This document shows positions 62,079 to 64,000 of a stretch of DNA of 64,000 nucleotides, in pieces. The position numbers and the translations under genes were made by a program. Source of the stretch: Candidatus Marinacidobacterales bacterium (GTDB lineage: Bacteria; Acidobacteriota; Vicinamibacteria; Marinacidobacterales; DATDRI01); NCBI GenBank assembly GCA_965219415.1, contig OZ244742.1, forward strand, positions 672,001 through 736,000, written 5' to 3'. Each line of letters starts with the position of its first letter. Positions within the stretch are counted from its first letter, which is position 1. Under the pieces are notes generated by a model. That model did no database searches. It saw only the letters and a list, made by a program, of their open reading frames with translations, and was not told where the DNA came from.

Positions 62079-62168
62079 GGCTAACATAAGGATTCTATCC
62101 GGAGCGCACGGGCAAGAAAAGTCGGAGTTGGCAGAGGGTGGCCGTGGTCCGGATAGAATCTGTTGAAC
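62079..62168 (-). other. attC-like terminal hairpin next to the IS91-like element
   Basis: Minus strand GTTCAAC...GTTAGCC enclosing a perfect 13-bp IR GATTCTATCCGGA (62091-62103 / 62148-62160). Confidence 0.65.
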
Positions 62169-62397
62169 TATCCGCTGCGCGGCGGGAGTGTATGGGGATT
62201 GTATGGAATGGGCGAAGGTTGTTGGGGGGTGTGTTGGGGAATAAGGCCGGGGGCGAGGAGCCGAGCGGGGCTATAGGAGCGGGGGCGAAAGGGGCGATTG
62301 ATTTCATACAGGGGCGGCGAAGCTTGGAAAGGCTCGAGCGGGCAGAGCACTCGCGCTCGGGCGACAGGTCTCGAAGATTCAAAGGGCATAGTCCGCA

Positions 62398-63600
62398 CTA
62401 GGAGGAATCGAAGCTCCAGGACGCGATGGCCCGAGCAGGGCGAGCCATCACTCGGACGAGGAGGAGGCGTCCGAGTTTGCATTCGGGACAAAGCTCGAGT
62501 TCCTCGACCTGCTGCTGCAGCGTCCCATCCGTTTGTTTGAGCTCGGAAACGTCGTCGTTGACGGAACTGGACTTTGCTCCGTCCAGGAACTTTCGTGCCC
62601 GCGCAAGTTTTTCTGCTCGATGGCGGTTGGCGAGAAAACCGTAGTAGCGAACGCGGACGAAACCTTTGGGAAGCACATGGAGCAGAAACCGTCTCAGAAA
62701 CTCCACGGCGTCCAAGCTCATCGTGCGTTGGCGATTACCGTGGGCGTAGTCTTTCCAACGAAAGGCGACCTTTCCGTCTTCCACAGACACGAGCCTGTGG
62801 TTGGAGATCGCGACGCGGTGGGTATAGCGGGCGAGGTATTTGAGCACTTGCTTGGGACCGCCGAATGGAGGCTTGGCATAGACCACCCAGTCTTTGTCTC
62901 GAAGTGGCTGGAGCCAAGCTTCCCAGCGCTGGGGATACTCTAAATCGCGAAGGCCTCCGTGGAAAGCGAGCTGTTGCTGCTCCCAACCCCGTTGGAGTTG
63001 AGCTGTGAACTTGCCCCGGAAGAGCCGGCTCAAGACCCGGACGGGCAGAAAAAAACCGTCTCGGCAGCTCACCCACCGCTCGGCGTCGAGGCCGATGCCG
63101 CCGCCCGGAACAATGCAGTGCAGATGCAGATGCGCGTGTAGGTTCTGCCCCCAGGTGTGTAGAACCGCCATGCAGCCGATCTCGGCACCCAGATGCTTCG
63201 GGTCTCGAGCGAGCGTCAGTAGTGTCTCGGAAGCGGCACGGAACAACATCCCGTAAACGGCGCGACGATTCTGAAGCGCCATCGGAGCCAGCTCGCTTGG
63301 AAGCGTGAAGACGACGTGAAAGTACTCGACGTCGAGTAGCTCCTGCTCGCGTTGCTCCAGCCAATCCGCTCGAGCCGCCCCCTGACACTTCGGGCAATGC
63401 CGGTTACGGCACGAGTTGTAGACCGGTACCTCGTGAGCGCATCGGTCACACCGATTCAGATGGCCTCCCAGAGCGGCCGTCCGGCACTGAACCACCGCAT
63501 TGAGAACTTGCCATTGTTCTCGCGAAGGCCGGTAGCGCTTCAGATACGCTGCCCCGCACTCGCGGATGACATCGGCCACTTCCGGCCGATGTCCGCTCAC
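62398..63600 (-). CDS. IS91-family rolling-circle (Y2/HUH) transposase
   Basis: CRTAALGG, NSCRNRHCPKC, HTWG...HLHC, YLARY, RYYG. Confidence 0.95.
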   Translation of the reverse strand: MSGHRPEVADVIRECGAAYLKRYRPSREQWQVLNAVVQCRTAALGGHLNRCDRCAHEVPVYNSCRNRHCPKCQGAARADWLEQREQELLDVEYFHVVFTLPSELAPMALQNRRAVYGMLFRAASETLLTLARDPKHLGAEIGCMAVLHTWGQNLHAHLHLHCIVPGGGIGLDAERWVSCRDGFFLPVRVLSRLFRGKFTAQLQRGWEQQQLAFHGGLRDLEYPQRWEAWLQPLRDKDWVVYAKPPFGGPKQVLKYLARYTHRVAISNHRLVSVEDGKVAFRWKDYAHGNRQRTMSLDAVEFLRRFLLHVLPKGFVRVRYYGFLANRHRAEKLARARKFLDGAKSSSVNDDVSELKQTDGTLQQQVEELELCPECKLGRLLLVRVMARPARAIASWSFDSS

Positions 63601-64000
63601 TTGAGCTCGTCGGCCTCCGAAACGTTCTCGAGCAGATCCACCACTTCACGCTTCATCTGAGATGCCCCCGCCGCCACGTGAAGGTAGATCGCTGTCGTGT
63701 TCAGACTGCTGTGACCCAACCGTAGTTGGAGCGTCCGTAGATTCGTGCCCGCTTCCAACTGATGCGTCGCGTAGCAATGACGCATCGTCTGCGTCGTCAC
63801 CCGTTTTCTCAGTCCCGCCTTCAAGGCCGCTAAACGACAAGTCTTCTGGACAGGCGACGGCGTCACGGGAGTCTCCTGGCTCTCCGCTTCAAACAACCAC
63901 CTCTTTGGACGATACTCCCGCCAGTAATCACGCTGCTGCTCTACAAGCGTTGGCGTCAGCTCTACATAGCGATCCTTACGACCCTTTCCCTGCTTCACAC
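63597..64000 (-). CDS. Tyrosine recombinase coupled to the IS91 transposase; 5'-partial
   Basis: GKGRKDR, TMRHCYATH, LGH...TTAIY; lacks the IntI-specific insertion. Confidence 0.9.
   Translation of the reverse strand, partial: VKQGKGRKDRYVELTPTLVEQQRDYWREYRPKRWLFEAESQETPVTPSPVQKTCRLAALKAGLRKRVTTQTMRHCYATHQLEAGTNLRTLQLRLGHSSLNTTAIYLHVAAGASQMKREVVDLLENVSEADELK

Follow-up and report, generated by a model that had tools for sequence, protein, structure and literature searches.

The stretch of 64,000 nucleotides analysed here (positions 672,001 to 736,000 of contig OZ244742.1 of a Candidatus Marinacidobacterales bacterium, G000:C1:672001-736000) raises the question of how an insertion sequence can come to stand in an integron as though it were a gene cassette. 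At one edge of this stretch, which we refer to as the window and whose positions serve as coordinates throughout (L, C and G codes denote the loci, contigs and genomes compared), an IS91-type transposase gene and a tyrosine recombinase gene are followed by an attC-like hairpin which runs in register into an array of cassettes. Comparison of sequences indicates that this is a two-gene insertion sequence (IS) of IS91 type, with a gene for an IntI-like recombinase and then a Y2 transposase gene, which is formally cassette number one of the array. The explanation we favour, with a little better than even confidence, is insertion encoded by the element itself with an integron-like choice of site.

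Both genes lie on the minus strand. The intact transposase gene (tnpA, 62398-63600, 400 aa, identified from its open reading frame (ORF) and profile matches) gave 227.9 bits with Pfam PF04986 (Y2_Tnp), 110.2 bits with PF14319 (Zn_Tnp_IS91) and 456.6 bits with NCBIfam NF033538 (IS91, cut-off 125), and the product belongs to the IS91 family by its HUH/Y2 and IS91 zinc-binding domains. The 3' part of the recombinase gene occupies 63597-64000 and the gene continues past the window edge to L001 3882, encoding 287 aa when complete; its stop codon overlaps the start of tnpA. The recombinase matched Phage_integrase and also TIGR02249, the latter at 181.5 bits and under the cut-off of 265, and with this score, the absence of the IntI-specific insertion and 31% identity to the IntI of G006 it does not qualify as IntI. 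An earlier sequence-only reading of the window had described the missing insertion and a Gln in place of the first His of HxxR, and both were verified in the alignment; the Gln is peculiar to the window element, as 7 of 7 aligned IS91-linked relatives have His. A preprint termed IS91-linked recombinases the closest IntI homologues (10.1101/542381), a statement from which IS91 is absent in the available portion of the published version (PMC8138268).

Downstream of tnpA, still on the minus strand, an ori-proximal non-coding region (62186-62397) leads to a small palindrome, CCGC-GCA-GCGG, and a GTTCAAC box at 62162-62168 (together 62161-62185), which form the subterminal inverted repeat of terIS, the opposite end of the element (GTTGAAC plus palindrome). 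One A separates the box from the oriIS hairpin (62091-62160), which has perfect 13-bp arms at 62091-62103 and 62148-62160 and a 44-nt loop. The spacer CTTAT (62086-62090) follows as the terminal bases of the element at oriIS, and is followed in turn by GTTAGCC (62079-62085), an integron core box of R' type which opens cassette 1 and which serves as the target core of the insertion. Each feature that the sequence-only reading had named in this order was present. The same reading had matched GTTAGCC with the R'' box of the attC of cassette 1 (GGCTAAC, 61654-61660), and the two are indeed exact complements.

Cassette 1 (61559-62078, minus strand) comprises an ORF, for which a Pfam search gave no match, and an attC at 61559-61660, and follows the element in register. 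A second attC (59820-59953) is likewise in register, its R'' GCCTAAC matching the preceding R' GTTAGGC, and attC-like sites were also found at 55461-55544 and 54690-54821, giving three pairs in register within the window. Our own attC scans were crude and in their relaxed version returned many false matches, so that only in-register sites with TAAC/GTTA cores were kept; an Rfam search at gathering threshold gave no match in the window, and Rfam does not appear to model attC sites. The last two bases of the element, AT, form together with the core G an ATG at 62085-62087 which is in frame with the cassette 1 ORF (61668-62087), so the insertion may supply this ORF with a new start codon.

The order of boxes by itself admits a simple alternative, in which the IS ends at GGATA before GTTC and the hairpin is a native part of attI or the attC of a lost cassette. 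In its favour, GTTC is the classical IS91 target and stands right after ...GCGGATA. The ends were delimited with six genomes holding at least two near-identical copies of related elements (G257, G400, G265, G286, G146 and G318). The first bases of the repeated unit in G257 and G400 are precisely GTTGAAC, and at its other end GTCCAAC is followed by a stem of 14-15 bp with its loop, by a spacer of 4-5 nt, through which the copies are identical, and by GTTA(G); the copies in G146, G318, G286 and G265 follow the same plan with other sequences. All nine G400 copies begin with GTTGAAC behind unrelated flanks, and the eight of full length end with hairpin and spacer and then GTTAG (six), GTTAT (one) or GTTGG (one), while the 3' junctions in G257 read GTTAG, GTTAT and GTTGC. 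The sequence shared by the multicopy relatives stops inside or just after GTT(A)(G). By these comparisons the GTTCAAC-type box, the hairpin and the spacer belong to the element and the bases after GTT belong to the target. Since box, hairpin and spacer lie inside the repeated unit of multicopy genomes, the hairpin is not the attC of a lost cassette but part of the rolling-circle element, as had been proposed. The lost-cassette explanation, which is refuted by the repeated unit in all six genomes and further excluded by conservation of the hairpin in elements of many phyla outside integrons, retains practically no credence.

The wider family was sampled with a terIS 15-mer, GTTGAACTAAACCGC, which matched at least 120 stretches of species-representative genomes of many phyla, and the counts below refer to the 120 matches listed (119 genomes). 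The sample was thus picked by one exact 15-mer, some of the hosts are related, and two stretches (L055 and L171) share flanks and are kin representing one event; flank amounts vary, with at least 1200 nt upstream in 100 of the 120. A table of ends was compiled with 21 rows (20 elements) after L055, L059, L071, L109 and L128 were dropped for doubtful automatic ori calls. In every row an ori box GTYCAAC, or a close variant, was followed after 0-6 nt by a stem of at least 11 bp, often with TATCC, around a loop of 31-79 nt, and in 18 of the 21 rows GTT stands 3-9 nt after the stem. The terminal hairpin for which the sequence-only reading had suggested a survey of recombinase-IS91 pairs is therefore kept in the relatives and adjoined by GTT. 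Stem sequences vary between elements with the pairing kept, and the ori box co-varies with the ter box, as with GTTCAC and GTGAAC in G286. The multicopy relatives and the 21 rows together place an oriIS palindrome downstream of tnpA, adjoining the target, and terIS upstream, which is the two-end arrangement of IS91.

A motif in the ori-proximal region, CAATCCCCATA (62191-62201), precedes the GTTCAAC box by about 25 nt and is conserved in the ori regions of distant members; G257, G400, L161, L169, L101 and the S. meliloti copy have it at about 25-30 nt before the box, and it may be a recognition or nick site of the transposase.

Across 26 insertions the five bases at the 3' junction were GTTAG (15), GTTGG (4), GTTAT (3), GTTCG (2), GTTGC (1) and GTTAA (1), and several junctions extend to the consensus of the integron core as GTTAGGC or GTTAGCC. 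At positions -9 to -4, the 118 distinct 5' flanks are rich in A/T and poor in G. The ends themselves also obey the rule of cassette cores, in which RYYYAAC pairs with GTTRRRY and the cassette starts after the G: GTTCAAC pairs with (G)TTGAAC, in register on both sides. Folded as single-stranded DNA (ssDNA) and compared with shuffled controls, the hairpin region of the window element reached -19.8 kcal/mol for the gene strand (z -3.65) and -25.6 kcal/mol for the opposite one (z -4.79). With the two ends of the window element joined in silico, the folds of the gene strand and the other strand came to -36.8 and -41.8 kcal/mol, respectively, against -22.6 and -27.3 kcal/mol for the integrated state. 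Eleven elements have one non-Watson-Crick pair in the stem, of which seven favour the non-coding strand (A-C or C-A on the coding strand being G-T on the other), two the coding strand and two neither (C-C), and the common pair GTCCAAC/GTTGAAC is a wobble only on the non-coding strand.

The far end of the element was reached by extending the contig, a check that the sequence-only reading had suggested, and was found to adjoin an integron attI. Past the window edge (L001, L003) the order is the end of the recombinase gene, 128 bp, terIS (GTTGAAC and the palindrome ACCGC-TTC-GCGGT), 195 bp, 40 bp and the stop codon of an intI gene, so that about 590 bp of an element of 2.6 kb in total lie outside the window. 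The intI product scored 342.9 bits with TIGR02249 (cut-off 265) and has the IntI insertion, and the gene is on the same strand as the cassettes. The 235 bp from its stop to terIS are the presumed attI and end with AATAACT directly before GTTGAAC. With intI, attI and an attC-bounded array the locus is an integron, its intI carrying an apparent frameshift. That gene (L003 1331-2400, window-equivalent about 64830-65900) reads frameshifted once near ...RELNF / LIEIARAKRP, and the broken frame may reflect a true pseudogene in decay or an error of assembly.

In G006, of the same genus, intI stands at the syntenic place after a threonine-aldolase-like gene, with 240 bp from its stop to ACTGTTAGAT and the first cassette; in G001 about 270 bp lie between the intI stop and the crossover, with ACTGTTATAT. 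Relatives with a co-directional intI have 199-270 bp over this interval. When the presumed attI was aligned with its counterparts in G006 and G001, only ACTGTT at the crossover was shared, which is weak support. Because the remainder of the recombinase gene, terIS, the presumed attI and intI follow in this order beyond the window edge, the element is in first-cassette position and in register with cassette 1; on sequence grounds it is oriented there as a cassette would be, and its insertion point is the GTT where attI meets cassette 1. TATCC-type repeats were also seen downstream of intI in the attI regions of G001 and G006 (L009 and L008), for example TATCCGGATA in G001, and resemble the TATCC of the hairpin stem, a likeness which may be coincidental or may reflect words bound by both recombinases.

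The position at attI is not peculiar to this locus. A true IntI gene was detected within the same stretch of at most 8 kb in 8 of the 120 listed matches, all in other species (tblastn with the IntI of the locus, 47-64% identity, unbroken across the IntI insertion), against a chance expectation for the listed stretches in total of roughly 0.1-0.2, estimated from genome sizes and intI counts; one of the eight, L084, is in a genome flagged unpublished. In seven of the eight terIS is on the attI side, and all seven elements point away from attI as cassettes do. Five of these are divergent from intI, with a gap of 472-686 nt to its matched C-terminal part and an estimated distance of roughly 120-370 bp from its start codon, and two are co-directional, 199 and 238 bp from the intI stop. 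The copy in G408, at 199 bp behind its co-directional intI, is also then followed by GTTAGCC. On contig C19 of G410, intI (8538-9494) is followed after a 194-bp gap by copy A (ter at 8343) and in tandem by copy B (ter at 5750), whose ori runs into GTTAGCC; a 559-bp cassette (an ORF, TTAGCC ... GGCTAAC R'') follows in register, and copy C stands at the GTT of the attC of that cassette, all in cassette orientation. Judged from neighbouring ORFs at 14 loci, the orientation of copies at attC-like flanks gave a mixed outcome. Taken together these sequences point to a family strongly associated with intI, attI and attC. Of the 119 genomes with the terIS 15-mer among the matches listed, 44 encode an IntI above cut-off, which seems high for random species, a comparison made without a matched control.

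A plain Y2 insertion next to a short target (GTTA) would explain this differently, with the attI position due to chance or to survival bias, since no gene is harmed there, and the attC likeness a by-product of terminal inverted repeats. The anatomy is indeed the canonical one described for IS91, with an ori palindrome adjoining the target tetranucleotide and a target-like ter cleavage site (PMC13181058, in the portion available), copies multiply without intI and most copies are outside integrons. We nevertheless consider such an origin improbable, as it has to account for intI in 8 of 120 listed stretches, with 7 on the attI side, for three copies in one G410 integron and for the share of host genomes that carry intI.

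The reverse possibility is that the host IntI placed the copy, by recombining the folded, attC-like joint of a circle with its cognate attI as in cassette capture. An IntI recognises its cognate attI, whereas attC is recognised by its fold, and several observations agree with this route: the first position at attI and the cassette orientation recur in unrelated bacteria whose attI flanks share no obvious sequence, the G410 copies, which all face forward, occupy attI and an attC R' box next to an intact intI, GTTCAAC and (G)TTGAAC obey the R''/R' rule, and the non-coding strand folds better. Elements of the family, however, do not need an intI to spread. The five genomes that hold several near-identical copies (G257, G400, G265, G286 and G146, 95-100% complete) all lack an IntI above cut-off, and G400 carries nine copies next to GTTAG-type sites with no intI. 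The element therefore moves with its own proteins and still chooses GTTAG-type sites. Head-to-tail tandems in which hairpin and spacer run straight into GTTGAAC occur in L097 and in G410 (contigs C18 and C19), and could be rolling-circle multimers or insertions into the GTTG end of the element itself; L097 consists of three tandem copies 2.6 kb apart in G456, which also has no IntI above cut-off. Such spread and tandems, together with the GTTAG-like target in intI-free G400, weigh against placement by the host enzyme, as do the non-canonical spacing and the absence of extrahelical bases in the stem and the frameshifted intI of the locus itself, although that gene may have decayed later or been broken in the assembly. 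We rank recombination by the host IntI next after the explanation we favour because diverse attI sites share little beyond the core, and we regard it as possible but rather unlikely.

Insertion by the element itself, the explanation we favour, would proceed as follows. The transposase would peel one strand, the non-coding one, from ori to ter and close it into an ssDNA circle, by analogy with IS91, for which distinct ori and ter ends, a target tetranucleotide adjoining ori and a functional single-stranded circle of the bottom strand are described in the part of PMC13181058 available. As the predicted fold suggests, the joined ends would then form a long hairpin in which GTTCAAC pairs with GTTGAAC to give outer boxes like those of attC. 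Proteins of the element, with a suspected contribution of the IntI-like recombinase, would insert this circle next to sites of GTT(A/G)G type, which is the integron core consensus, and insertion at such core-like sites would make attI and attC favoured landing places. The enzyme that joins the strands at GTT may be the Y2 transposase alone, the IntI-like recombinase or the host IntI. A bolder version, which we offer only tentatively, has the element as a self-mobilising cassette whose folded ori-ter joint is a working attC analogue, recombined at GTT by its own recombinase and by the host IntI at attI.

A number of findings speak against insertion with an integron-like choice of site. Canonical IS91 elements use the Y2 transposase alone for every step, and the window element has moved recently with a Gln at the catalytic His of its recombinase, which may thus not be the catalyst. 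As the sequence-only reading had recognised, the box spacing is not that of a canonical attC, with spacers of 1 and 5 nt, and the perfect 13-bp stem has no extrahelical bases, whereas a canonical attC has L''/L' boxes with such bases and spacers of about 5 nt on either side. IntI is absent from 112 of the 120 listed stretches, and most sampled copies are outside integrons. The target rule has exceptions, as CATT adjoins the elements of the G265 and S. meliloti subgroup and flanks vary among the G286 copies. With regard to target-site duplication, GTT was the sole repeat present at both junctions, and it admits two readings, one as a core common to both and one as target plus ter; its presence at either junction leaves the exact point of cutting ambiguous. 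At -0.45 kcal/nt, a crude search of the 5' flanks for attC-like hairpins between AAC and GTT scored 8 of 116, compared with 14 of 841 for control GTT sites (Fisher p 0.003), a modest enrichment which was gone at looser thresholds (17 of 116 against 111 of 841 at -0.30 kcal/nt). Contigs from four sequencing runs contained neither an empty site nor an ori-ter joint, with a coverage of 2-8 that was too thin and with contigs breaking at the repeat boundaries 1929 and 4211; joints listed for these contigs had short sides and were left out of account. The proposal of the sequence-only reading that the element mimics a cassette at attI and attC accordingly held in part: the ends follow the cassette rule and the family is associated with attI and attC, but the location of most copies, the spacing and the lack of bulges do not agree with it.

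The genome holds a second copy (C1:1162609-1164891) which is 99.96% identical to the integron copy over 2283 bp, including the 195 bp upstream of GTTGAAC, and which is cut off inside the 3' end of tnpA and lies among other insertion sequences. The sole nucleotide difference in the 2283 bp changes Leu to Pro beside the HUH motif (HAHPHLH in the second copy, L002 1901-3034, HAHLHLH in the integron copy). From this comparison the second copy quite probably arose by one-ended transposition from the integron copy with reading through ter into attI; alternatively the 195 bp could have arrived at the integron together with the element, in which case the attI would be only 40 bp long, unlike the 199-270 bp of relatives. 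In one metagenome run (coverage 2-8) pieces of the element and of the 195 bp were present and the 40 bp next to intI were not.

The second copy also bears on the suggestion, made in the sequence-only reading, that the element is an alternative platform which mobilises the array, here by one-ended transposition of integron parts. The 195 bp, which at the integron lie between terIS and the 40 bp proximal to intI, provide the sole hint of this, and IS91 elements are described as reading through ter in 1-10% of events (PMC13181058, in the part available). These 195 bp from the attI side are all that moved, however, with no cassette carried along, the direction of read-through is towards attI and intI and away from the array, and the piece could have come to the integron with the element. 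Homology of the two copies beyond their boundary was non-significant, as 131 of 500 shuffles reached the observed score. Mobilisation of the array by this route is accordingly very improbable.

Other insertion sequences have gathered in the cassette array. A gene with HTH_38 and rve domains (IS30-like) at 60050-61003 splits cassette 2, and a pair with HTH_Tnp_1 and rve (IS3-like) lies within the array at 57878-59460. A 1.37-kb element is present at 56121-57493, and a second copy of it adjoins the truncated second copy of the IS91-type element, a locus at which a Mutator-family (IS256-like) transposase gene was also found. The sequences 50863-51806 and 52472-53415 are the same and are 1609 bp apart, as though a single element were present in two neighbouring copies.

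Bacteria capture genes mainly by means of integrons, whose recombination sites are known targets of two kinds of mobile element. A third kind, and a widespread one, would be an example of how a transposon exploits, or shares ancestry with, the single-strand recombination chemistry of integrons, and it would pair a transposase that produces ssDNA with the closest known relative of IntI and an attC-like joint. Placed at attI, the element separates the array from whatever drives its expression, and one-ended transposition can carry DNA of the attI side elsewhere. Should the element prove to be a self-mobilising cassette, the family would form a living link from IS91-type transposons to the IntI/attC system, and would be a candidate for how one of the two arose from the other.

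The gene pair as such is already known. Two-gene IS91 members with an ORF of phage-integrase type (ISShvi3 and others) are present in ISfinder, and RefSeq annotates the same pair with no remark on it, as on pSINME01 of S. meliloti. Literature searches covering titles, abstracts and part of the texts returned passing mentions only; nowhere in this material were the ends of the two-gene elements, their target rule, the attC-like joint or a preference for attI described.

With the IS91 family (IS91, IS801, IS1294 and IS1294b) the element shares the Y2/HUH transposase with its zinc-binding N-terminal domain, two different ends with the ori palindrome adjoining the target, first bases of ter that resemble the target, an ORF upstream of tnpA with a stop codon that overlaps the tnpA start, as with orf121 of IS91, and evidence compatible with one-ended transposition. 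It differs from them in encoding a complete tyrosine recombinase in the upstream gene, in its target, GTT(A/G)G in place of GTTC or CTTG, in its long ori hairpin (stem of at least 11 bp, loop of 31-79 nt) and in its strong association with integrons. Like an integron cassette it starts with a TTRRRY-type sequence after G, carries RYYYAAC and then a hairpin and ends at the G before TT, stands at attI or at an attC R' box in the orientation and register of the array, and folds better on the non-coding strand; unlike a cassette it is 2.6 kb long, carries its own mobility genes and also inserts outside integrons in intI-free genomes, and unlike attC it has spacers of 0-6 against 3-9 nt, no bulged bases and a conserved TATCC in the stem. 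The IS1111-attC group and group IIC-attC introns also home to integron recombination sites (PMC9229058 and PMC8876359, in the portions available), but these use a DEDD transposase or a reverse transcriptase, with neither an IntI-like recombinase nor cassette mimicry. ISCR1 of complex class 1 integrons is likewise an IS91-like rolling-circle element tied to integrons; it lies, however, beyond the 3' conserved segment and not at attI or attC, and it has no recombinase gene.

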